A DNA stretch of 54,534 nt, from positions 1 through 54,534 of the forward strand of contig CANQML010000001.1 of the NCBI GenBank assembly GCA_947624935.1, written 5' to 3'. Position numbers and translations under genes: made by a program. Under the pieces are notes generated by a model. It made no database searches. It saw only the letters and a list, made by a program, of their open reading frames with translations, and was not told the origin of the DNA. Shown one piece after another: positions 5,119-53,303 of the stretch. The number at the start of each line of letters is the position of its first letter. Position 1 is the stretch's first letter. The stretch comes from Candidatus Gastranaerophilales bacterium (lineage in GTDB: Bacteria > Cyanobacteriota > Vampirovibrionia > Gastranaerophilales > Gastranaerophilaceae).

Positions 5119-5571
5119 ATGACTTATAAAATGATACAAGTAACAAACTTGCCTACTGCGCCGTTTGGTGCGGTTGCAATCGGCGGTGTTGTTCCTCTCG
5201 GCGTTGTAACGCATAAAGTTGGTGGCTGTACTTGCAATCAACCTACTTTTACTGTAACGACAAGCGGTGCAAATACTGTTAGTATAAATAATACAGGGCT
5301 TTATAGAGTTACTTTTGATGCAAGCGTTGTTGCAACGGCGGCGGGTGATGTAACACTTAATCTTGTACAAAACGGAACTGTTATTGCAAGCGCAACTGAA
5401 ACCGCAGTTGCGGGTGAAACCGTTAATCTTTCGCTTACGCGCATTATAGCGGTTTACAACACTTATGGTGGAGTTGTGCCTACCGTTCCTGCTAATATTC
5501 AAATTACTAATACGGGTACTACTGCGCTCACAAGCGGTACTTCTAACCTTATTGTTGAAAGGATTTACTAA
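5119..5571 (+). CDS. BclA C-terminal-domain-like (C1q/TNF-like jelly-roll) protein, no collagen repeats
   Basis: The pattern NTGLYRVTFDASVVATAAGDVTLNLVQNGTVIASA...NLSLTRIIAV...GTSNLIVERI parallels the BclA CTD strand pattern (recalled, not searched). The ATG follows AAGGAG. Confidence 0.45.
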   Translation: MTYKMIQVTNLPTAPFGAVAIGGVVPLGVVTHKVGGCTCNQPTFTVTTSGANTVSINNTGLYRVTFDASVVATAAGDVTLNLVQNGTVIASATETAVAGETVNLSLTRIIAVYNTYGGVVPTVPANIQITNTGTTALTSGTSNLIVERIY

Positions 5572-5585
5572 TAGGGGGTGTAATT

Positions 5586-6266
5586 ATGAATGATTATGCA
5601 AGAAGTAGAATGAGAGGTATGCGCGACGGTGCGCGTGGTAGGCGCGGTATGCGTGATAGAATACGCGGCGAATATCGCGGCGGTATGGATTTCCGCGGTG
5701 ATTATGCTATGCGGGACGGCAGACAAGGCGTAAAAGGCACGGGTAGATATGGTAGAGGCGGTAGTATGTATCGTGATAGAGGTTATGACGACGATTACGA
5801 TTATGACGAAACCTATGAAGAGCCGTATGACTACGATTATGACTATGCAATGCGCGACGGTAGGCGTGGTGTAAGAGGCTCTCGCAGAGATAGAGGCTAT
5901 GACGATTACGACTACGCAGACGAAGAAGATATGCACTTATCTAAACGCGAAATGCAAGAGTGGAAACGCTCTATGAAAAACGCAGACGGTACAATGGGAG
6001 AACATTACAGACTTGAAGAAATTATGCCTATGGCTGAAAAAATGGGTGTAAAATTTGAAGAGTTTGACGAAAAAGAGTTTTGCCTTGCCGTTAATATGAT
6101 GTATTCCGATTATTGCAAAGCAATGAGAGAAAGCGTTGCGCTCCCGCCCGATAAAGAACTTATGACCTATATCAAGCTGGCAAAGGCTTGGTTAGAGGAC
6201 GAGGACGCTCCCGAAGGCTCGGAGAAGTTGGCTTTATATTATCGTTGCATAGTTGACGATATGTGA
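5586..6266 (+). CDS. charge-patterned RG-rich / DY-rich repeat protein with globular C-terminal domain
   Basis: Repeats of MRDG(R)xG(V)xG alternate with YDDDYDYDETYEEPYDYDYDY. The C-terminal ~110 aa is non-repetitive. Confidence 0.6.
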   Translation: MNDYARSRMRGMRDGARGRRGMRDRIRGEYRGGMDFRGDYAMRDGRQGVKGTGRYGRGGSMYRDRGYDDDYDYDETYEEPYDYDYDYAMRDGRRGVRGSRRDRGYDDYDYADEEDMHLSKREMQEWKRSMKNADGTMGEHYRLEEIMPMAEKMGVKFEEFDEKEFCLAVNMMYSDYCKAMRESVALPPDKELMTYIKLAKAWLEDEDAPEGSEKLALYYRCIVDDM

Positions 6267-30668: not shown

Positions 30669-30974
30669 ATGCAAAATATTAAACTTGACGGCTCAACAGG
30701 TTGTTTTATTCACCGCGATAAAGACGGAATACATTTAGAAATGGTTGTAAATGATAATTTGGGGTGTAAAAGCGGTGATTATAAAACTGTAAAGCCCGAA
30801 GATTGTCCTACTCAATACGATTATGTTATAGACATAAGCGAAACTACTTATATAACGCTTGTAAAATGTATGCTGTCATTAGCAACACGCGAAGAATTTA
30901 ACAAAATATTACTTAACCCCGTTGACGGGGCTTGTTGGGAAGTAACCCATAGAAAAACAAACAAAAAGCAATGA
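30669..30974 (+). CDS. hypothetical protein
   Basis: ATGA overlap with terL. Confidence 0.5.
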   Translation: MQNIKLDGSTGCFIHRDKDGIHLEMVVNDNLGCKSGDYKTVKPEDCPTQYDYVIDISETTYITLVKCMLSLATREEFNKILLNPVDGACWEVTHRKTNKKQ

Positions 30975-33013
30975 ATAGTCTTAAAAATATTATTGATAGC
31001 CGATTACAGTTTGTGGCTACTTTTACCGAAAAATCGTATTGTGTTTGTAAAGATTGCGGTAGAGAGTGGAAAACTAAACTTGTAAACGGCGAAAAAGTAT
31101 ATGATTTGAAAGCAAAGTGCGATTGCGGTTGTAAAGAATACCAAAATAGGTATTTAGTTGAAAACAACGAGTTTGTTATTCAAGTCTTACAAGATTTAGC
31201 AAAAGCGTATAAGACGGAAATACACGAATATCTTGCGCCGTCTAATCTGCCCGATAAAGAAAAGCGAATACGCGACCATATAAGAGATATTATGACGAGG
31301 GTTAAGCCTATTGCAGAGGGTAGGCTTGACTACTTTACTAATCAATACACAAAATGGTATAACAAAGGCGTTGCGGAACTTCAAAGAGGCAAAAATAAAA
31401 ACAAGTATAAGAGTAGGAAAGAAATACCTATTGAAGATTTTTCACCCGAAGTAAAACAACAATTAAAAACTTATAAACAGTATGTAGATATTTTCAAAGG
31501 GTTAGTAGAAGATTATACTGCGTTAGTTGCGTTTAGGCACTTTGAAACTTTTTGTTTGTACATAGACAGAATATTCGGTAATGATATTTTTACACCCTCA
31601 ATAAGGCTATTCAAAGGGTTTTATTACTATGCTAACAAAATGGTTTTGGACGGCGATGTCAAGTTTATAGAAAAACAATGTTTTGCTGGCGCGGGCAAGT
31701 CTATAACCGACTGCGCTTTAATCTGTTGGATTTTAGGCATTGATATTAACACGGACGTGCTTAAAATCTTCGGCAATGATGAAAACATACAAAACGCTAT
31801 GGATACCATAACGCAAATAATGTGTTCGCCGTATTACGCAAAGGTATTTCCGTACTTTGAAAAGTTTAACGGCAATAAAAACGATATGTTTTCTAAACTC
31901 AAAGAGGCAAGCGGTGATTTAAAGATAAGCGGTAGTATTAAAACGCTTAATTTAAGGGTTAAGTCAAAAGGTGAGAAAACGGACGGCGTAAGAGCTAAAT
32001 TCTTATTCTTGGACGATATAGACGCAGCTGACGACACCCTCGAAAACTATAAAAAGTCTATTTTCTTATATAGAACAAGGTGGCGCAAAAGAAAATATAA
32101 CGATAATCAGTTTTATATCATTGCAAGCGGAACAACATACCACAGAGAAGATTTTTTATCATTTCTTAAAGAAAAGTTCGGCTCACAGTACGCAACGCCA
32201 TCACCGTTTGAGTTTACTTCAACGGCAAGGACTAACGAGATTACGCCTAACGGACTTTCCGTATTCTGCGTAATTTACGGGCTTGACGAAAACGATAAAT
32301 CGACTTATGAAAAGAAGTTTACAACCCAATCGTTTTTGAACGAACGAAAAGACGATTATCGTACTTTTATGGCTATGACACAACAACAGCCGTTACCGCC
32401 AGAGGGTGCGCCGTTTGATTATGATAATCTTCCTAACCTATACGGCGAAGAGGGAATACCGCACTTGCCCGACCGCTTACAGGAAGTATGCAGAGCTTCC
32501 CTCGACCCTGCAAGAAAAGGTAAAGACTTTAATTCTATGCCTATAATTGTTACAATAAACGGCGAAATGTATTTACAAGATTGTATATTCAATAACGACC
32601 CGCCCGACAAACTTCCTTATCAAATAGTCGATATGATTGAAAAACACCATATTGTAGAGTTAGATATAGAAAACAATACCGATACTACTTTTGATTTGCT
32701 TATTAAGAAAATTCTTAAAGAGCGCGGAATAATGTACTGTAATGTTACTTCGTTTTATAGTTACGAGAAAAAAGACCAAAAAATAAAGAACTATGAAACT
32801 GCAATAAAGAGTATTCATTACCCCGAACGCGATGTGTATTCTCGAAATTCGCCTATGGGGAACTTTATGTATTGGTTTACTAACTATGACTATGAACACC
32901 CGCCCAAACACGACGATAGCGTAGATAGCCTTGCTAACTATTCACAGAGATTTATAATCAATAAGCCTACGGGAGTACAGATAAAAACCTATTCTCGAAG
33001 AAAACATTATTAA
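30971..33013 (+). CDS. terL: terminase large subunit
   Basis: Walker A CFAGAGKS, Walker B KFLFLDDID, nuclease-domain motifs SLDPARKGKD and HDDSVDSLA. 680 aa with an N-terminal Cys cluster. Confidence 0.85.
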   Translation: MNSLKNIIDSRLQFVATFTEKSYCVCKDCGREWKTKLVNGEKVYDLKAKCDCGCKEYQNRYLVENNEFVIQVLQDLAKAYKTEIHEYLAPSNLPDKEKRIRDHIRDIMTRVKPIAEGRLDYFTNQYTKWYNKGVAELQRGKNKNKYKSRKEIPIEDFSPEVKQQLKTYKQYVDIFKGLVEDYTALVAFRHFETFCLYIDRIFGNDIFTPSIRLFKGFYYYANKMVLDGDVKFIEKQCFAGAGKSITDCALICWILGIDINTDVLKIFGNDENIQNAMDTITQIMCSPYYAKVFPYFEKFNGNKNDMFSKLKEASGDLKISGSIKTLNLRVKSKGEKTDGVRAKFLFLDDIDAADDTLENYKKSIFLYRTRWRKRKYNDNQFYIIASGTTYHREDFLSFLKEKFGSQYATPSPFEFTSTARTNEITPNGLSVFCVIYGLDENDKSTYEKKFTTQSFLNERKDDYRTFMAMTQQQPLPPEGAPFDYDNLPNLYGEEGIPHLPDRLQEVCRASLDPARKGKDFNSMPIIVTINGEMYLQDCIFNNDPPDKLPYQIVDMIEKHHIVELDIENNTDTTFDLLIKKILKERGIMYCNVTSFYSYEKKDQKIKNYETAIKSIHYPERDVYSRNSPMGNFMYWFTNYDYEHPPKHDDSVDSLANYSQRFIINKPTGVQIKTYSRRKHY

Positions 33014-37465: not shown

Positions 37466-37494
37466 TTGACAAACGAAAAATCTTGTGGTATTTT
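37466..37494 (+). promoter_or_regulatory. promoter TTGACA-17-TATTTT with an extended -10 TG
   Basis: TTGACA at 37466..37471 and TGgTATTTT at 37486..37494. Confidence 0.6.
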
Positions 37495-37529
37495 AGAATA
37501 AAATAAAGTATTATTAGATTTATGCCTAT

Positions 37530-37745
37530 ATGAGCGAACAAGAAAAAAGCGAGCTTGAAAAGAAGAAATTTCATAAAGTGTTATGTTACCGTTGCGGACT
37601 TCCATTGAATATACAGACAACGGAAGAAGTCGGGTATAAAGTATCGCAAGCAAACATAAAGGTTTGGTGCGTACATTGCCAAAGGTATTGTAAAATACAA
37701 ATTCCCGAAAACGCAAGGTTTATAAATTGTGAGGAGAAGAAATGA
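37530..37745 (+). CDS. zinc-ribbon protein (CxxC...CxxC)
   Basis: CYRCG ... CVHCQ. Confidence 0.5.
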   Translation: MSEQEKSELEKKKFHKVLCYRCGLPLNIQTTEEVGYKVSQANIKVWCVHCQRYCKIQIPENARFINCEEKK

Positions 37746-38695
37746 TAGTTATAAGCCCCCAAAATCTTAAAACTGTTGGTGCAATAGTCAATGTTGCTGA
37801 TATTGTAGCAGACAGTAACGGTGATTATGTACTTAAAGCGGGTACGCCCGTTTATGGCTCGGCGTTAAGCGAAGATAGGCAAACGGCATTAACTTTATCG
37901 GGCATAAAGGCAAGAGGAATTGTTTACAGAGATATTTACTTTGAAAATGGCGAAAAGGAAGTAAATGTTACGCTTATTGTCAATGGTATGGTAGATATTA
38001 CTTACCTTGACGAAGATATAAAGGAAAAACTCACTCACGAAGTTCAAAGTCAATTATTTAACATACAGTTTGTAAACGGTGTAGGCAGATTGTTTACAAA
38101 TGTTGCTAATAAGACACAATTATTGTCTGCAATAACAAAAGGTGGCACTATTGTTCTTGAAAGCGATATAACCGATATTACCGATAGAATTGAAATAACG
38201 AAAGATACCGAGATTGACCTTAACGGAAAAACGTTACAAGGCTCGTGCGGAAGTAATATTTCACTTCTTTGGGTAACGGGCGGTGAGCTTACTATAAGGG
38301 GCAAAGGTACAGTAAAATGTACGGACGGCTACGCGATATATGTAGGTAGCGTTGCGTTAGGCGATAAGAAAGGTAAAGTAGTTATAGAGGGCGGTACTTA
38401 TAGCGGTGAAACAACCGTTGTACACGTTATTTGCGGTACGGCTGAAATAAAAAGCGGTACATTTAAGCTGAATAACTCAATGGGTACATACGGTGCTAAC
38501 TTCTTACTTAACTGTCAAGATACTTCTATTGGCAAGGCAAGTATAGAGGTTACGGGCGGTACATATTATGATTTTAACCCCGCCGAAGCTGAAAATAACG
38601 ATTTAGGCGCAGGCAAAAAGACAACCTATGTAAAGAGCGGTTATAAGTCCGTAAAAGACAAGTCGCAAAACATTTGGACTGTTATAAAAGCATAG
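37742..38695 (+). CDS. capsid-decoration-protein paralogue fused to a C-terminal beta-helix-like domain (head fibre candidate)
   Basis: The N-terminal ~115 aa aligns with the 41121..41522 product (YVLKAGTPVYGS/YRVKAGTPLYTS; TLIVNGMVD/TLVINGMVD; IQFVNG/IQFVRG). The C-terminal ~200 aa has repetitive G-x-hydrophobic beta-strand rungs. Confidence 0.55.
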   Translation: MIVISPQNLKTVGAIVNVADIVADSNGDYVLKAGTPVYGSALSEDRQTALTLSGIKARGIVYRDIYFENGEKEVNVTLIVNGMVDITYLDEDIKEKLTHEVQSQLFNIQFVNGVGRLFTNVANKTQLLSAITKGGTIVLESDITDITDRIEITKDTEIDLNGKTLQGSCGSNISLLWVTGGELTIRGKGTVKCTDGYAIYVGSVALGDKKGKVVIEGGTYSGETTVVHVICGTAEIKSGTFKLNNSMGTYGANFLLNCQDTSIGKASIEVTGGTYYDFNPAEAENNDLGAGKKTTYVKSGYKSVKDKSQNIWTVIKA

Positions 38696-38738
38696 TTTGA
38701 TATAAAAATTACATAACGGCATAGACTGATAGCGCGGA

Positions 38739-38786
38739 GCGCAGATTAACTCTTTTATTAGGGTTAGTTTGCGCTTTTTATTTTTT
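38739..38786 (+). terminator. intrinsic terminator
   Basis: 12-bp stem GCGCAGATTAAC / GTTAGTTTGCGC (two G-T pairs), then TTTTTATTTTTT. Confidence 0.7.
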
Positions 38787-38798
38787 CAAGGGTAGTGT

Positions 38799-40397
38799 AT
38801 GGAAATTAGAGGTTGCAAAATAGAAAAGTCGGGAATACCAAAAATAGAAATTCCCGTTAGACTTAAAGATTTAGACGAAGAAGTAATTGCATACTACTTA
38901 CCTTATTGTATAGCGCAAGCGAAAGAAAATGCAAAGAAAATACGCTATTTAAATGATTATGTTGACGGCTCTTTTCAACCGATAGACAAACATATTTACG
39001 ACAAAAAAACAAGCGGAAATGCTGAAAACCGCATAAAAGAAAACCACGCTTATGAGATTATTCAATTTAAAGAGGGCTTTTATTGCGGTGATAGCATACA
39101 GTTTTCGAGTAAAAATCCCGATAAACAAGAAGCTATGTTTTGCTTAAACCAACAGCTTGTAGATACAAGTTACCACTCTAAAAGTATTGAGCGTTGGCAT
39201 AATGCGTTAGCAACGGGAACGGCAATCAGTTTTATAATGCCTCGCGCAGATATATTTAACGATATAGGCGAGGGTGAAAACAGAGTAACAACTTATAAAA
39301 CCGAAAGCGAGGGTTATAATGTAAAAACTGACGCTTGCTTTGTTTATGAAATTGTTGACGGCGAGAATAACGCTATTGTTTATTCTTCTTATATAGGCGA
39401 AAGTGGGCTTAAAGATTTATTCTGTTTTAATATTGCGCAAGTGCGCAACAGAATTACTAACCGAAACGAGCAAATTGTTACCGTTTATACGCGAGAGGCT
39501 ATATACGAATACAAAAAAGTAAACGAAAAAAATGAGTTAGTTTATGTAGCTTCAAATGTAGCATACGGCAGATTGCCTATGACGGAACACGCAACAAACA
39601 ACACGCGCATTTCGCCTATTGAAGTAATAAATGATTTGCTTAATGCAATAAACTTAACTGTTTCAATAGAAGTAAACAGCATACAAGATAAAGTATATCA
39701 ACTGTTGGTATTTTTAGGTGCAGATATAGGCGATGAGGGCGTTGACGCGCTATATCAAAACGGCGTTGTTTGCGTTCCCCCCAGCCAATTTGGAAATACT
39801 GACGTTAAAGCTATATCAAATGATTTAAAGTGTGCAGATACAAACACTTCAATCGAGCGTATGTTGACGAGAGCGTTTGATATTGTAGGCGTTCCGTTAG
39901 CAAGTGCGGCTGTTTCAAGCGGTAATAACGAGGCGGCGTATTTGGGCGGCGGTTGGACTAACGCAAGTGTTGTTGCTAAAAGAGATATTGCTTATGACGA
40001 AAGATTTGCAAAAGAGGAATTAGAAAAAATCATAAAGATTTGCTCTTTAAATCCTCAAAACCCTGTCAATGCAATAACAGCAAGCGAAATAAATATTAAG
40101 TACAACATAAACCAAAGCAATAACTTACTTGTCAAAACACAAGCAATGCAAAACTTAAAAGAAATAGGCTTTGCAATAGAAGATATAGTAAAAACTATTC
40201 CGCTGTTTAATGACGAGGCTAATGTTGCTAAACGCTGTGAAGAAAACTTAAAAAAAATACAAGAGCAATTAAAACAGTTGCAAAATTCGACTACTAACAA
40301 TTCAAACGAACAGCCTACGGGCGATAATTTGAAAGGCGAGCAAAAGCAACAGCAAGCGCAACAAACACAAGGCGAACAGGCAAAAAGCGTTTCATAA
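38799..40397 (+). CDS. portal protein (SPP1 Gp6-like)
   Basis: 532 aa, upstream of scaffold and capsid. NRIKENHAYEIIQFKEGFYCGDSIQF resembles the conserved portal N-terminal motif. Confidence 0.75.
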   Translation: MEIRGCKIEKSGIPKIEIPVRLKDLDEEVIAYYLPYCIAQAKENAKKIRYLNDYVDGSFQPIDKHIYDKKTSGNAENRIKENHAYEIIQFKEGFYCGDSIQFSSKNPDKQEAMFCLNQQLVDTSYHSKSIERWHNALATGTAISFIMPRADIFNDIGEGENRVTTYKTESEGYNVKTDACFVYEIVDGENNAIVYSSYIGESGLKDLFCFNIAQVRNRITNRNEQIVTVYTREAIYEYKKVNEKNELVYVASNVAYGRLPMTEHATNNTRISPIEVINDLLNAINLTVSIEVNSIQDKVYQLLVFLGADIGDEGVDALYQNGVVCVPPSQFGNTDVKAISNDLKCADTNTSIERMLTRAFDIVGVPLASAAVSSGNNEAAYLGGGWTNASVVAKRDIAYDERFAKEELEKIIKICSLNPQNPVNAITASEINIKYNINQSNNLLVKTQAMQNLKEIGFAIEDIVKTIPLFNDEANVAKRCEENLKKIQEQLKQLQNSTTNNSNEQPTGDNLKGEQKQQQAQQTQGEQAKSVS

Positions 40398-40496
40398 CGC
40401 ATTGTAAATAAAAGTGCAAAGAAGCACTCTAAAAAATGCAAGGGTATAAACCCCTTTTCAGAGAAGAAAAGTAAAATAAACGCAAAGGAGATTTTT

Positions 40497-41108
40497 ATGT
40501 TTAAGTGTAGGTATGGCAAGATTATGTTTGCGCCCGATACGGGAGCGGACGGCGGTGCAGGTGCAAGCGGTGTTGACGGTGTAGAAACGGAAACTCCCGA
40601 TACAACCGATTGGAAAGCCTTGTATGAAAAAGAACACGCTGACAAGGAAAAACTGAAAACAAGTTTTGATAAAACAGCGAGTGAGATTGCAGAGCTGAAA
40701 AGGCAAAACAAGGCTAAAATGACAGAGGACGAGCAACGGCAAGCGGAGCAAGCGGAAAGAGAAGCTAAATATCAAAGTATGCAAAATGAGCTTAACGAGA
40801 TAAAGACTTCTAATGTGTTTGCAAAGCAAGGCTTTAATGAAACCGATTATGCGGACTTGTCAAAAAAACTTGTAGAAAGTTGCGGTGAACACGCAAGCGA
40901 AGTTGCGGAAATAATAACCGCTTTTGTAAAGAAAAGCAATCAAACAGCAGTTGCAAATGCAAGAAACGGCGCAGTTGTTGACGGCGCAAAACCGCCCAAA
41001 GCAAGTACAGCCACAAAAGAAGAACATACCTATGCAAATATAGCTTCTCAAATGAACGCACAAAACAATAGGATTGACGAAATTAAAAATCATTATAAAA
41101 AAAGTTAA
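40497..41108 (+). CDS. scaffolding protein (GP20-like)
   Basis: Coiled-coil, charged protein located between portal and capsid. Confidence 0.65.
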   Translation: MFKCRYGKIMFAPDTGADGGAGASGVDGVETETPDTTDWKALYEKEHADKEKLKTSFDKTASEIAELKRQNKAKMTEDEQRQAEQAEREAKYQSMQNELNEIKTSNVFAKQGFNETDYADLSKKLVESCGEHASEVAEIITAFVKKSNQTAVANARNGAVVDGAKPPKASTATKEEHTYANIASQMNAQNNRIDEIKNHYKKS

Positions 41109-41120
41109 AGGAGTTATAAA

Positions 41121-41522
41121 ATGGTAACAAAGGAAACTTATACCACAGGCACGGTTATACTGATTAAGCCTGAAACCGCAAGACGGGTTGGTTGCGTTAT
41201 TAAGAAGCCCTCTCTTTCCGACAGCGACGGCAAGTATAGGGTTAAGGCGGGTACGCCTCTTTATACGTCAGAAGCCTTGACGGAAGTAGGCATAGATAGG
41301 AGCAAGGCATTGTCCGATACAGAGGGCGGCGTTGGCTCGGCGGCAGGTGTGCTTTACGAGGACATTGTATTTAAGGACAAAGAAGAAGAGGCTAACGGAA
41401 CTTTGGTAATTAACGGTATGGTTGATTATCTTAAACTTGACAGCACAATACAAGCAAAAATTACTACGGACGTTGAAACAAAACTTCCGCATATACAATT
41501 TGTTAGAGGGAGGGCAGACTAA
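41121..41522 (+). CDS. head decoration protein (gpD-position)
   Basis: 133 aa, immediately upstream of the gpE-type capsid gene. Confidence 0.5.
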   Translation: MVTKETYTTGTVILIKPETARRVGCVIKKPSLSDSDGKYRVKAGTPLYTSEALTEVGIDRSKALSDTEGGVGSAAGVLYEDIVFKDKEEEANGTLVINGMVDYLKLDSTIQAKITTDVETKLPHIQFVRGRAD

Positions 41523-41524
41523 TA

Positions 41525-42565
41525 ATGAACAGCCTTTATGATATTGTAACCGCACCTGAAATTGCGGCTTATTGGGAAGATAACCAACAGTACAACGAGC
41601 CTTATTTTGGCGAGGGCAAATTCCCTAATATGAAGAAAGTAGGGCTTGACCTTGCGTGGATTAAGGGTGCAAGGCGCGCGCCCGTTTCCCTCTCGCTTTC
41701 GGCGTTTGACGCGGACGTTTTGCCCTTAAAGCGTGGCGAAGTTGAGAGATTGGCAACGGAAATGCCTTTCTTTAAGAACGAGTACAGAATTGACGAAAAA
41801 ACAAGGCAGGAATTGCTTATACTTACGCAAGCGGGCAACGCTGGCGCAAATGCCATTATAGGTCAAGTATTTAACGACGAGGCTAACCTTTTGCGTAACG
41901 CGGCACTCACCCGTGAAATGCTCCGTATGCAGTTGCTGACTACGGGTGTTATTTCCCTTGACGATAACGGGCAGAAATTCTCTTATGATTTCGGACTTCC
42001 CGAAGAGCATAAGGTAGAGCCTAATACGAAGTGGGGCGTTGTAGCTACCGCTGACCCCGTTGCCGATATTGAAAAATGGCAGTTAATGATAGCGGAAGAA
42101 AAAGGTACTGCGCCTACGGAAATTCTGCTTAACAGCGCAACTTTGGCAGCTATGGCAAAGGTTGACGCTATTAAAAACGGCGTATTTGCAAACAGCAATG
42201 TTACGACACTTCCTACGAGAGGACAGGTTGTTGCGTTCTTGCAAGACCAGCTTGGAATTACTGTTTATGTATATGACAAAGGTTATAACAAGAACGGCAA
42301 GTTCACGAAGTTTGTTCCTGACGGCACCGTTGTACTTATGCCCGCTACTACTTTGGGTAACACTTGGTTTGGTACTACTCCCGAAGAGGCAGACTTGCAA
42401 ACGGGCGGGACTGATGCAGTTGTCAGCGTTGTAGATACGGGCGTTGCAATAACCACTTGGAAAGAAAAAGACCCCGTAAACGTGCGTACAAAGGCTTCGG
42501 AAGTTGTACTTCCCTCTTTTGAGCTTGCTGACGAGGTTATTATCGCAAGCGTACTTACTGATTAA
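41525..42565 (+). CDS. major capsid protein (lambda gpE-like family)
   Basis: 346 aa. The N-terminal pattern LYDIVTAPEIAAYWE...FPNMKKVGLDLAWIKG is typical of Phage_cap_E as recalled. Position supports the call. Confidence 0.8.
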   Translation: MNSLYDIVTAPEIAAYWEDNQQYNEPYFGEGKFPNMKKVGLDLAWIKGARRAPVSLSLSAFDADVLPLKRGEVERLATEMPFFKNEYRIDEKTRQELLILTQAGNAGANAIIGQVFNDEANLLRNAALTREMLRMQLLTTGVISLDDNGQKFSYDFGLPEEHKVEPNTKWGVVATADPVADIEKWQLMIAEEKGTAPTEILLNSATLAAMAKVDAIKNGVFANSNVTTLPTRGQVVAFLQDQLGITVYVYDKGYNKNGKFTKFVPDGTVVLMPATTLGNTWFGTTPEEADLQTGGTDAVVSVVDTGVAITTWKEKDPVNVRTKASEVVLPSFELADEVIIASVLTD

Positions 42566-42575
42566 AAGGTGATTT

Positions 42576-42818
42576 ATGGCGTGGATTGACGTAAAAAGGC
42601 AAGGCGATAGGAATATTTATCGCATAACCACAGAGGCTTACGAAAAAGATTTCAAAGCGCAAGGCTATAAGATTGTAAACGAAACCGCGAATAACGCCGA
42701 TAATAGCGTTTCTGCGGCGCAAAACGGCACAGCCGATAAATCTATCAAGCCCACGCCCGAAACGCCGTCAAAACGCAAATACACGCGCCACAAAGATATT
42801 GCCGATAAAAAAGAATAA
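42576..42818 (+). CDS. hypothetical protein (head module)
   Basis: Position only. Confidence 0.45.
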   Translation: MAWIDVKRQGDRNIYRITTEAYEKDFKAQGYKIVNETANNADNSVSAAQNGTADKSIKPTPETPSKRKYTRHKDIADKKE

Positions 42819-49047: not shown

Positions 49048-50123
49048 TAACTATTCAAGCAAGGATAAACATAACGGGAAACAGTAGCGGTACAATCACT
49101 TCGGCAAGTAATTCACTTAAAGGGAATAATGTGTCAAGTGATTTAACGGCGGTAGTTAATAAGAAAGAAACACCGTTAGGCAAACCGTTTATATTAGGAC
49201 GGAGTATATTAGGAAAGGGCGATACCTATACTAAACAACTGCCGTATTATATGGGTGCGCAACTTGCTAATAGCGCGGGAAATTTTGCAAATAAATACAC
49301 TATTACGATAAACGGCACTGATATTTCAAGTGCCGTTATAGTCTTTGATAAAGAAAATGAGAGATACCCTAAAAGTCTTTTAGTGGACGGCGAAATTTAT
49401 GTAGACGACGACCCGCAAATCGAAATACATTTTCCTAATACTTCAAATTCTCATACTATTGAAATATCGAATTGGAATACGCCTAATGAGCCGTTAATTA
49501 TTACGGGCATTTACGCTGATTTAAGCATTGATATAGGCTTAAATAACCTTATATCTTTTAATAGCACGATACAAGATAGAGATAGTAGTGATTATCCTAC
49601 ATATGGGCTTATATCTAATACGGCAACACTTAACTTTGCCGATTTAGACGAGCAAACAAAAGACTTAATCACTCAAAAGATATTGCATAGCGGTATTACT
49701 GTTACAGTTGAACTTGTAAATGATACGGCAAATAAGCGCGAGCAAATTTGCCAAATGGAAATACGCAATTTAAGCTATGACAATAACAATAGGTCTGTAT
49801 CATTATCCTTAAAAGACAATCTTGAAGATTTACAAGATATTAACTTTGAGGGCATAAGCTATACTCCTACCGTTAGTACGCCAAAAACAGCAAAAGAGAT
49901 TTATGATATTTTATACGAGGCAACAAAAAAATTAAACAAATATCAATGGCAATCTTATGACGAATTAGACGAGGAAGTAAAGGACAGACTTAATAGCATA
50001 ACAATACAATATCCTACTATGGAAAGCTCTAATTTATGGGATGGTTGGAATAAACTTTGTCAATTATGTTTATTGCATATTTATATTGACAACAACAATG
50101 TAGTTGTGGTAAAATGTGATTAA
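49044..50123 (+). CDS. tail-associated / baseplate hub protein candidate
   Basis: Position; ATGA overlap. Confidence 0.4.
   Translation: MITIQARINITGNSSGTITSASNSLKGNNVSSDLTAVVNKKETPLGKPFILGRSILGKGDTYTKQLPYYMGAQLANSAGNFANKYTITINGTDISSAVIVFDKENERYPKSLLVDGEIYVDDDPQIEIHFPNTSNSHTIEISNWNTPNEPLIITGIYADLSIDIGLNNLISFNSTIQDRDSSDYPTYGLISNTATLNFADLDEQTKDLITQKILHSGITVTVELVNDTANKREQICQMEIRNLSYDNNNRSVSLSLKDNLEDLQDINFEGISYTPTVSTPKTAKEIYDILYEATKKLNKYQWQSYDELDEEVKDRLNSITIQYPTMESSNLWDGWNKLCQLCLLHIYIDNNNVVVVKCD
50086..50115 (+). promoter_or_regulatory. internal promoter TTGACA-18-TAAAAT with an extended -10 TG
   Basis: TTGACA at 50086..50091 and TGgTAAAAT at 50107..50115, inside the 3' end of the 49044 gene. 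Confidence 0.5.
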
Positions 50124-50514: not shown

Positions 50515-50784
50515 ATGCAAAAGACTGATACCGATACTCTTATAGAGCAATTAAAAGCATTATATAATCAAACGCTTGATTTTATTGATTATATCAATAA
50601 TGGGCATAGCAGAAAGCAATATGGTGAAAGCTGTATGAATAGATTTATAAAGAAAACTATGCAATTAAACGAGTATATCAAGCAATTAGAAAACGGCGGT
50701 AAACACGACAAGCCGTTTGAGTATTGGTGCAATCTTTTAGGCGATATTTTAGTTTCCGATAATTTCTACCACGAGGACAAATAA
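50515..50784 (+). CDS. hypothetical helical protein
   Basis: Operon context only. Confidence 0.5.
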   Translation: MQKTDTDTLIEQLKALYNQTLDFIDYINNGHSRKQYGESCMNRFIKKTMQLNEYIKQLENGGKHDKPFEYWCNLLGDILVSDNFYHEDK

Positions 50785-53303
50785 TGGCAGATTATTATAT
50801 AACTTCTAATAAGCGGGTACAATTTTTCGAAAGCACATCGGCTGATGAATTAAAACAAATACAATTACCCGAATTATTAGGAAAAAATAATTTAAACCTT
50901 ATAAGACAAAACACTTATCAGCCTTATTTATCACTATATCCTCCCTTTGATTTTGATGATGAGGGATTATTTGGTTGTATTCTATTATCAAGCACTTCAC
51001 CAAGTCAATTCAGTGATACAGCATATACGGGCACATATACTTTTTCTTTGCCTAAATTAAGCTTATATATAACAGCAAGCTTATATGCAAAATATGCAGA
51101 AAGTTCGTACAAAGCAACACTTCGGCTGGTTTTTTTAACAGAAGAAACTGAACACAGTAATGGTATAGTTTATTTAATTATTGGTTGTGCGAGAATAGAC
51201 AACAAATATGAAGAGGGATATATTCATAACGGAACATTTTCTTGGGATAAAAATGTAGTTAAGGATACATATCAAGGAGTATTAACGGTAGCAGCAGACA
51301 ACGGGGCAAATACTTTAACAAGTTTTGATTTCAGTGGCACAGCTTTTACTGAAAAAGAATATCAATGGTTACTTAATAATACTAATTTAACCGAAGAAGA
51401 TTTTGAATATAAAGGCATTACTTTTCACGCTAATGGAGGGGCTATTGGAGGCTTATCATCGGCAACCAAATTAGTAGACCCTCAAACGCATAAAGTTATA
51501 CCGCCCGATATAACAAACTCTGACCCGTCAAAAAAATTCCTTGGTTGGGCATATTATGGGACAAGTGACATAATAGATTTTAATAATGTTGAATTTTATG
51601 AAAGTGTAGACGTATATGCAGTATGGCAGTCATCAGATTTTTCCGTTACTTTTAACGCTAATGGCGGGCAATTTAAAGACGGTACAAAAAGAAAAGCAGC
51701 AGGAGTTCACCCCGACACACATAAAGTACAATTTACTGAACGCCCTATATCATCAAATTCAAATGAAATATTTGTTGGGTGGGGTGAAAATGCAAGTTCA
51801 ATCTTTCCTATTGATTTAGATACTGAAGAGTTTTATTCTTCTACTGAGCTTTATGCTATATGGGAAAGAAGTACGCCTACTCCTCCCATTGGCGGGGGAA
51901 AGGCTATTATAATACCCTCAAAATATATATACGAAATAGACGACAACAAAGTTATTGATAATGAAGTTGATAACCTTGAAGTTGAAGCGATAAAAGCTGA
52001 AATATCCAATCGATATGGGGAAATTGTAGGCAAATTTACTTATGACAATAAAGCAGATTTTAAAAGCGCAACTACTAAAAGCAACCAAAACATAGGCAAC
52101 ACTGTAATGGGCGGGTCAAGTTCTCGAAGAGTGGCGGTTGTATATGTAACAATCACCCCCGTGTTTATTGAAAAAACAATAAACATACCAAAAGAGCAAA
52201 CGAACGCGTTTGTAGAAAGTATTTTAACAGGCACTTCTCCAAGCGGGTATGAAAATATCAAATATACAATTTATGGGAAACGTATAACAGGAATAACAAC
52301 TGCAACGGCAAATCTGCATAGAGACGAAACAACCGTAAGCCCTTTTGGCATACAATCAATAACTGTTGATAATCCGCAAAAAAATTATGAAAGCGATATT
52401 GAGGCATATACATTAGAAAAAACAATAACAGTTGAAGAAAACGAAATATATGGCGATTTTGCGCCAACGGCAAATGCTGACATAAGTTTAACATATACTG
52501 ACGATATAACAAATTTATCCACAGCAAAAGCAAATGAAGTAACAATAAACGGCATAAAATATTGGCAAGTAAATGTAAAAATTTATTCGGGTGTTAAAAC
52601 AGCAACATATAAGGGTGGCGGTTTGGGGTCGGGTAGTGACCTTTCTATACCTTTAAGTGGAAACTATGAAGAATATGCACCGTACAGTATAGAAATAAAT
52701 TTATATGGCAATACAATAACGCTTGATTTGCAAGACGAAACGCTTAAAATAGGCAACGGACAACACATATATTCTTTTAGCGGAAATGAGTTAATGCAGA
52801 CTACTAATACTGATACTGTTAATGATACTTATCAAAAAGTAATTGATAGTTGGAAAGAGGGGAAAGAAGTTGCTACATTAAGGTGCGCTATTGCGAATTA
52901 TCAAAACAACATTAAAATTACAATAATAAGTAGTAGTGTTGTAGCTAACGGTTATTCATGTGAAGCTATTAGCAATTATGAACTTAAAAACGGCGACAAA
53001 ATTTATTATAAAAACGCTGTTTATACTGTAGCAGACTGGACTGGTTTTTACGGAATTTTATTTATACCTTTTGATAATGAATTTATTTCTAATACAGAAA
53101 TAATTGTATCGGTTAATGAAAACTCCGATAAAATGTTTTTTTTACAAGGCGATATAGTAGAGCCTTATGTTTATGGCGCAGACGGTAGAGATAAACCTAT
53201 GGCTACTAAAAAAGACGGTACGCCTAAACAGTTTAAAGTAATTAGCGTTGGAATAAACAATAATAACGGAATAACGCAAGATATTGTTATACAAGAGGTA
53301 TAA
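50784..53303 (+). CDS. baseplate / receptor-binding protein with two InlB B-repeat (Listeria-Bacteroides repeat) modules
   Basis: ITFHANGG...FLGWAYYG...VDVYAVWQ and VTFNANGG...FVGWGENA...TELYAIWE. Confidence 0.6.
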   Translation: MADYYITSNKRVQFFESTSADELKQIQLPELLGKNNLNLIRQNTYQPYLSLYPPFDFDDEGLFGCILLSSTSPSQFSDTAYTGTYTFSLPKLSLYITASLYAKYAESSYKATLRLVFLTEETEHSNGIVYLIIGCARIDNKYEEGYIHNGTFSWDKNVVKDTYQGVLTVAADNGANTLTSFDFSGTAFTEKEYQWLLNNTNLTEEDFEYKGITFHANGGAIGGLSSATKLVDPQTHKVIPPDITNSDPSKKFLGWAYYGTSDIIDFNNVEFYESVDVYAVWQSSDFSVTFNANGGQFKDGTKRKAAGVHPDTHKVQFTERPISSNSNEIFVGWGENASSIFPIDLDTEEFYSSTELYAIWERSTPTPPIGGGKAIIIPSKYIYEIDDNKVIDNEVDNLEVEAIKAEISNRYGEIVGKFTYDNKADFKSATTKSNQNIGNTVMGGSSSRRVAVVYVTITPVFIEKTINIPKEQTNAFVESILTGTSPSGYENIKYTIYGKRITGITTATANLHRDETTVSPFGIQSITVDNPQKNYESDIEAYTLEKTITVEENEIYGDFAPTANADISLTYTDDITNLSTAKANEVTINGIKYWQVNVKIYSGVKTATYKGGGLGSGSDLSIPLSGNYEEYAPYSIEINLYGNTITLDLQDETLKIGNGQHIYSFSGNELMQTTNTDTVNDTYQKVIDSWKEGKEVATLRCAIANYQNNIKITIISSSVVANGYSCEAISNYELKNGDKIYYKNAVYTVADWTGFYGILFIPFDNEFISNTEIIVSVNENSDKMFFLQGDIVEPYVYGADGRDKPMATKKDGTPKQFKVISVGINNNNGITQDIVIQEV

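Follow-up and report, generated by a model that had tools for sequence, protein, structure and literature searches.

The window analysed here is a stretch of 54,534 nucleotides (contig CANQML010000001.1 of assembly GCA_947624935.1). We found that it belongs to a rabbit-gut phage in which a lambda-gpD-like decoration protein of the capsid has a second, optional copy, and this copy is joined to a beta-helix surface module. The gene for this fusion (37742..38695, plus strand, as are the other features of this paragraph) encodes 317 amino acids. Its N-domain (residues 1-114; 37742..38083) is a paralogue of a predicted gpD-like (beta-tulip) decoration protein, and its C-domain (residues ~118-317; 38093..38695) is modelled as a capped right-handed beta-helix module. 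The stand-alone copy, the 133-residue head decoration protein Dec, is encoded further downstream (41121..41522), directly ahead of the gene for the major capsid protein (MCP; 41525..42565). Upstream of the fusion gene lie a sigma-70-type promoter with an extended -10 element (37466..37494; TTGACA-N17-TATTTT with TGn, 10/12) and the first cistron of a leader, which encodes a 71-residue zinc-ribbon protein with two CxxC pairs, C19/C22 and C47/C50 (37530..37745). The ATG of the fusion gene overlaps the stop codon of this cistron (ATGA). Downstream, an intrinsic-terminator-like hairpin of 18 pairs followed by a T-run (38736..38787), recognised by its fold energy and conservation, separates the fusion gene from the gene for the portal protein (38799..40397; SPP1_portal, 4.8e-23; phrog_64). 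The relatives used for comparison were drawn from rabbit-gut and other gut metagenomes; L015 is an NCBI assembly contig, and L017 and L018 are from IMG/VR. A search for RNA-seq runs containing this phage returned none.

We compared the two decoration-type products by BLASTP. Residues 1-113 of the fusion aligned with residues 12-130 of Dec, with 53 identities in 120 positions (44%, E 1e-27). Three motifs are paired in this alignment (fusion first): KAGTPVY with KAGTPLY, TLIVNGMVD with TLVINGMVD, and IQFVNG with IQFVRG. Both products also match phrog_909 (8.8e-10 for the N-domain of the fusion and 7.7e-14 for Dec). At the level of sequence the paralogy is real and far beyond chance. No DNA similarity was found between the genes at 37742 and 41121, and a phylogenetic tree joins the Dec of L009 (100/100) with the N-domains of the fusions from the window, L001, L009 and P0045. 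A recent in-genome duplication of the window's Dec was rejected on the lack of DNA similarity together with the separate clade of the fusion N-domains; the paralogy in the window is therefore old. Only in the relative L004, where the two copies share 82.6% nucleotide identity, does a recent duplication or gene conversion hold. Ratios of nonsynonymous to synonymous substitution rates (dN/dS) were 0.14-0.31 for the fusion N-domain and 0.08-0.41 across both domains, and purifying selection evidently acts on both.

The identity of Dec was then assessed from its predicted fold and gene position. An AlphaFold2 (AF2) model built from 33 homologues reached a predicted local distance difference test (pLDDT) score of 80, with residues 1-10 disordered (pLDDT<50). 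When the model was searched with Foldseek against the PDB, the top six matches were lambda gpD in the mature virion (8xqb_J0), four chains of SHP of phage 21, and the decoration protein of YSD1 (6xgq_a), with match probabilities of 0.97 for lambda gpD 8xqb_J0 and 0.91-0.98 for SHP (1td0/1td3). Dec produced no Pfam match at E<=0.1, the gpD family included, and a profile search against PDB sequences was likewise empty. Its gene adjoins an E-family capsid gene on the upstream side, the place that gene D occupies in lambda; the capsid protein matches Phage_cap_E (1.8e-45) and phrog_29 (3e-73) and shares 27% local identity with lambda E. The fusion gene, by contrast, lies upstream of the portal gene and not of the capsid gene. 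On fold and position, not on curated-family membership, the 41121 product is accepted as a predicted gpD-like (beta-tulip) decoration protein. As a lead only, the N-terminus of Dec (41121-41150), MVTKETYT, resembles the MTSKETFT of lambda gpD (L011 748-780); this likeness may reflect a conserved capsid-clamping arm, or chance. A region search for other architectures joining a Dec-like domain to a cargo returned the query alone, with a word-based method that is too insensitive for this purpose.

The C-domain of the fusion was modelled much better than its N-domain. Residues 118-317 have a pLDDT of ~90 in the AF2 model and form one strand, a capping helix (124-133), many short strands and a C-terminal cap. 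In Foldseek searches of the PDB and BFVD, right-handed beta-helix proteins make up nearly all of the top matches, among them pectate lyases, depolymerase tailspikes of Klebsiella phages, a protein annotated as a PfbA-like adhesin, and the adenovirus protein LH3. Profile matches in the PDB to de novo designed TIM barrels were rejected as spurious low-complexity hits. Beyond these, no match was found among PDB sequences, nor in Pfam (Pectate_lyase and Beta_helix included), NCBIfam or PHROG. A profile search of 1.84 billion representatives (50% clustering) at E<=0.001 returned a family of 7,908 representatives, in which the domain is often repeated in tandem, with up to 18 tandem copies in a protein and proteins of up to 7,230 amino acids. 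Close relatives apart, all of the matches listed cover the C-domain alone. Some carriers have lipoprotein-type signals (P0010, P0011, P0149) and one lies on a 344-kb contig. In IMG/VR the domain occurs without a Dec-like part on 39 viral contigs, many of jumbo-phage size; in L025 it forms the C-terminal end of a 782-residue protein with a weak tail-fibre PHROG match. The rest of the window, tail fibres included, yielded no second copy of the module. Taken as a model, the domain suggests a self-capped, bead-like beta-helix surface module, and the sequences suggest that this ~200-residue unit is a candidate new domain family. The same cargo, at 48-53% identity, was also seen in P0008 (L006 10001-10828) and P0007 (L008 377-1192), where it sits on a third, unrelated all-beta N-domain of ~85 residues; the contig is phage-like and 94 kb long, and the 20 kb available around the gene held no paralogue of this N-domain.

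Much of this had been proposed in an initial annotation of the window, and the comparison bore it out: the reading frames and the CxxC zinc-ribbon gene, a 37742 product whose first ~115 residues (~113 in our alignment) and three motifs are shared with the decoration protein at 41121, ~200 further residues that look beta-helix-like though without a significant match, and a promoter-like site at 37466 and a terminator, seen here as a hairpin with T-run, that bracket the genes.

Evidence on the function of the N-domain came from alignment of the window with L004, a near-identical relative. DNA identity between the two is 96.7% up to position 37725, through the zinc-ribbon gene, and vanishes across the fusion N-domain (37726-38136). 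It returns, at 82.8%, over the fusion C-domain, the portal and the scaffold (38137-41008), disappears again across Dec and the capsid gene (41009-42689), and is 96% in the downstream genes from 42690. Within L004, the fusion N-domain is 86% identical to the Dec of the same genome in amino acids and 82.6% in nucleotides (nucleotides 1-339). The Dec of L004 is hardly related to that of the window (E 0.11) and still a member of phrog_909, and the two capsid proteins share 25% identity; the C-domain cargo, by comparison, is 89% identical. Two separate patches have been replaced in L004, and therefore the anchor was swapped along with the Dec and MCP cassette while the cargo was kept. This coordinated swap suggests that the N-domain must match the head, and supports capsid binding. 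Homology between the N-domain and the Dec of the same genome holds for each of the six genomes with a fusion. Between L001 and L009, the synonymous divergence (dS) is 0.17 in the N-domain and 1.14 in the C-domain; the joint between the domains is a recombination point. The gene as a whole is also polymorphic among otherwise syntenic relatives, being present in the window, L016, L001/L014, L009 and L004 and absent from L015, L017 and L018, which have the same head module.

We consider it reasonably probable that the fusion is an accessory, capsid-anchored display protein encoded by an optional cistron in a late-operon leader. The product would be an accessory head protein built from two exchangeable modules. 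Its N-domain would dock it at decoration sites, by analogy with lambda at threefold and quasi-threefold positions, either as homotrimers or, since it has no capsid-clamping arm, in trimers shared with Dec. The beta-helix module would then stand out from the head as a knob for adhesion or binding, making a head fibre and a natural form of gpD display. The comparisons show the paralogy, the folds as predicted, the swapping of modules, the presence or absence of the gene, the conservation of the flanking signals and purifying selection; that the protein enters virions, where and in what number it sits there, what it binds and what the hairpin does are inferred.

Several observations weigh against such a display protein. 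The fold matches of Dec are modest (E 0.008-0.18, template modelling (TM) score 0.37-0.54, in the Foldseek search of the PDB), and hhalign gave no sequence-level link between Dec and lambda gpD (probability 0.5%). No fold match of the C-domain is significant either (E>=0.014, TM<=0.37, PDB and BFVD). The N-domain is poorly modelled (pLDDT <50 in the AF2 model of the whole fusion), and because its own model is poor, its fold is deduced from the paralogue at 44% identity. In the tree, the fusion N-domains lie outside the clade of the Decs of the window and L001. In the alignment, the stand-alone Decs have ~12 residues ahead of the point at which the fusions begin in the window, L001 and L009, and the open frame extends only 3 codons 5' of the fusion ATG. 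The N-terminal "Dec-arm" is the main capsid clamp in gpD-type proteins (review PMC7602432). An arm-less fusion could, by analogy, bind weakly or need Dec in mixed trimers. Finally, the N-domains of the L001 and L009 fusions are 92% identical, yet the Decs of these genomes are 36% and their MCPs 42% identical, so that the match of the fusion N-domain to the capsid is only coarse.

Some of these observations would also fit a protein that is not displayed on the shell. Here the Dec-like domain would only provide a base for oligomerisation, or would partner Dec or MCP inside the cell, for instance in modulating Dec assembly or in attachment to the neck or portal vertex, and the beta-helix would act there. 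The absence of the arm from most fusions, the coexistence of nearly identical N-domains with diverged MCPs, and the location of the gene in the leader, upstream of the terminator and not among the head genes, are all consistent with it. We nevertheless regard this account as unlikely. The replacement of Dec and MCP in L004 coincided exactly with that of the N-domain, which became a copy of the new Dec, the L004 fusion retains the complete Dec N-terminus, and the C-domain belongs to a family of surface or extracellular type, as the lipoprotein signals of its carriers indicate.

A second alternative keeps the capsid anchor and makes the beta-helix an enzyme, a depolymerase or lyase that degrades capsule, mucin or biofilm glycans. 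The beta-helix is the usual depolymerase fold, and pectate lyases and Klebsiella phage tailspikes are among the best matches, but every one of those matches has E>0.01 and a TM score of at most 0.37, and neither Pfam Pectate_lyase nor Beta_helix was hit. To look at this from the side of the sequence family, we aligned 392 copies of the domain. Conservation is concentrated in glycines, in hydrophobic residues and in the motifs DLNG, LNxxD and GGxFxxFNP, together with a few Asn, Asp and Glu positions. In LNxxD, the N is conserved in 94% and the D in 80% of copies (LLNCQD from residue 255 in the window fusion). Beyond this one Asn and one Asp there is no conserved constellation of acidic and basic residues of the kind typical of lyases or hydrolases. 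In addition, the module has only ~7 rungs and occurs in giant proteins as up to 18 tandem beads, which is typical of an adhesin or spacer but not of an enzyme. Binding is favoured over depolymerase activity because no catalytic-type residues are conserved, and the conservation pattern suggests that a binding or spacer unit is more likely than an enzyme. We think an enzymatic cargo quite improbable; of the initial annotation's putative "glycan-binding or glycan-degrading module", the degrading half is the less favoured.

The display reading includes a position in a leader, and we next consider that leader and its conservation. The extended -10 promoter pattern occurs 7 times in the window against 0.46 expected, and the 37466 site is one of the 7. 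Counts from generic promoter and terminator scans match chance expectation; the 37466 promoter and the hairpin are supported because they are conserved across relatives and because the extended -10 pattern is enriched. The window, L004, L001 and L009 all keep the promoter core, TTCTCTTGACAAAC...TGTGnTAT, without change, even where the flanks diverge, and the fusion-less L015 and L017 have an equivalent promoter, TTGACA-17-TATAGT/TATAAT. Homologues of the zinc-ribbon protein, which has sub-threshold Pfam matches only (NinD, DZR), lie at the same place in all relatives, including L015 (E 3e-8) and L017 (E 1.5e-8). The hairpin at 38736-38777 has a predicted energy of -29.5 kcal/mol (z -4.5); its stem ends 22 nucleotides, and its T-run about 12 nucleotides, before the portal ATG. 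In L001 and L009 it is conserved with pair-preserving substitutions. The order in L015 and L017 is a consensus promoter, a zinc-ribbon open reading frame (ORF), a hairpin of different sequence with a T-run, and the portal ATG within about 25 nucleotides; in L018, which has no fusion, a 59-residue ORF lies directly before the portal. The fusion cistron itself is inserted after the zinc-ribbon stop and ahead of a ATAACGGC...GCGCnnnGCGC motif, likewise conserved, that lies 5' of the hairpin. Since fusion-less relatives keep the leader, promoter and terminator belong to this conserved leader of the structural operon, and only the fusion cistron is optional.

This result indicates that 37466 is probably the promoter of a late-operon leader and not one private to the fusion. 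It is the last strong plus-strand promoter before 50086, and the gap from the hairpin to the portal is too short to hold another. Transcription of the late genes probably relies on read-through of the hairpin or on promoters that are not of sigma-70 type, and the hairpin is probably an attenuator or regulated terminator of the leader. The zinc-ribbon protein may be a candidate regulator. Viewed across genomes, the leader (window 37466-37745 and 38696-38798; L015 4008-4345; L017 1840-2190) consists of a promoter, a zinc-ribbon ORF of ~55-71 residues, and a hairpin with T-run; it is conserved in all relatives examined, whether or not they have the fusion, and it may be a late-gene control device. 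In size and in the spacing of its cysteines the four-cysteine protein is like the Ogr-type late activators, without detectable homology to them. In the window, 38715-38752 (ACATAACGGC...GCGCGGAGCGC) holds ATAACGGC and a GCGC-NNN-GCGC palindrome directly 5' of the terminator stem, and the second GCGC of the palindrome doubles as the 5' arm of the long hairpin; this arrangement may be a putative protein-binding site or an alternative pairing.

The organisation of the locus bears on the remaining alternative, a classical moron, that is, independently transcribed and horizontally acquired cargo that benefits the lysogen or host and not the virion. Its look of promoter, gene and terminator and its presence or absence among relatives would suit such an element, but the promoter, the zinc-ribbon gene and the terminator also occur in relatives without the fusion and so are not cargo, no compositional anomaly was seen (G+C 0.32-0.37 over 37-39 kb, in line with the adjoining sequence, the fusion gene included), the fusion has no signal peptide, and its N-domain is tied to the head module, making a moron very improbable indeed. 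The proposal in the initial annotation that the whole unit was an inserted moron with a promoter and terminator of its own is not supported, as L015 and L017 keep the order of promoter, zinc-ribbon gene, hairpin with T-run and portal, and only the fusion cistron varies. What it had said of a head fibre or display function, freed from the moron unit, stays plausible and is better supported by the swap of the L004 N-domain together with Dec and MCP.

For the capsid-anchored display protein that we prefer, the leader adds a step of expression. Because its cistron lies between the conserved promoter and the hairpin terminator, the fusion gene would be co-transcribed with the zinc-ribbon gene, upstream of any attenuation at the hairpin. 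A fuller version, which is rather unlikely in its entirety, would hold that the arm-less paralogue is unable to clamp alone and that mixed trimers with resident Dec give a built-in mosaic display of single beta-helix knobs. In this version anchor and cargo would be swapped independently by recombination at the domain joint. The dose would be set by the leader position upstream of a conserved regulated terminator, possibly under control of the zinc-ribbon protein.

Other features of the region were recorded alongside. The scaffolding protein is encoded between portal and Dec (40497..41108, plus strand; phrog_172, 9.8e-6). A 680-residue product at 30971-33013 has a T7-type terminase RNaseH-like domain (1.8e-11), and therefore the large terminase lies ~5.8 kb away from the portal; methylase and replication genes fill this interval, in the same order in L004, L001 and L009. 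Upstream of the leader promoter, L001 has ~800 bp without a convincing ORF (5380-6170), where the window has replication genes; this part of L001 may be a non-coding element or decayed genes. The only other near-consensus promoter inside the structural block is at 50086-50115 on the plus strand (TTGACA-18-TAAAAT with TG, 11/12), directly 5' of the 50147 gene and the large tail gene at 50784-53303.

Phages are believed to use accessory head proteins such as Hoc, pb10 and the fibres of phi29 for anchoring themselves to mucus, to cell walls or to non-host surfaces. To our knowledge, accessory head proteins carry Ig-like or coiled-coil projections, with binding domains unrelated to the cement protein. 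In the window, the anchor is a diverged copy of the cement protein and the cargo a beta-helix module from a very large family without a curated name. The fusion is a natural counterpart of engineered gpD display, and the replacement of its anchor with Dec and MCP while the cargo was kept shows how such proteins are rebuilt upon exchange of head genes. If the display function is borne out, the fusion would offer an evolution-tested capsid-display scaffold for phages of gut anaerobes, a handle on the function of a ~200-residue module found in thousands of giant surface proteins, and a simple setting in which to ask how decoration sites are divided between two paralogues. The leader ahead of the portal, with its conserved promoter, zinc-ribbon gene and terminator, is in turn a testable candidate for late-gene control.

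Comparison with known systems places the leader close to two models. In lambda, the PR'-tR' late leader has a strong promoter followed by a terminator just before the structural genes, with antitermination by Q, and in P2, zinc-finger late activators of the Ogr type offer a comparison for a four-cysteine protein of ~70 residues at the start of a late region. The window leader resembles this layout and differs in being protein-coding; no homology to Q or Ogr was found for it in Pfam or PHROG. For the beta-helix, a capsid precedent is the hexon-interlacing protein LH3 of snake atadenovirus, a right-handed beta-helix on an icosahedral capsid that is among the fold matches of the C-domain (5g5o/5g5n). 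However, LH3 belongs to an animal virus with a non-HK97 capsid, its beta-helix is trimeric, and the match is insignificant (E>=0.2). In a limited full-text literature search, we found no description of a cement-protein paralogue carrying a beta-helix.

Among head fibres, gp8.5 of phi29 is the nearest functional analogue, with a beta-tulip base and a projecting domain. It is dispensable and thought to aid attachment to the cell wall (review PMC7602432). Unlike the window, phi29 lacks a plain decoration paralogue with which its fibre would compete for sites. The phi29 fibre projects as an alpha-helical supercoil and the fusion with a beta-helix module, and no sequence similarity to gp8.5 was detected. 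T4 Hoc, T5 pb10 and Sf14 gp20 are like the fusion in joining an accessory capsid-binding domain to adhesion-type domains shared with bacterial surface proteins. They are dispensable and coexist with a cementing decoration protein, as the Hoc-like gp20 of Sf14 does with the beta-tulip gp33 (PMC11821841), and they have unrelated anchors, Ig-like cargo and hexamer-centre sites (PMC7602432, PMC11821841). In the window, by contrast, it is the cement protein itself whose paralogue forms the anchor, and a beta-helix forms the cargo. The nearest structural relatives of this anchor are lambda gpD and SHP of phage 21, which Dec resembles in fold match and gene position. A plain Dec alongside a Dec with a cargo at its C-terminus is also the arrangement built on purpose in mosaic gpD display, where a phage has wild-type D together with a D-fusion (for example PMC6784203); unlike the engineered systems, the pair in the window is natural, and its fusion copy is without the N-terminal arm.

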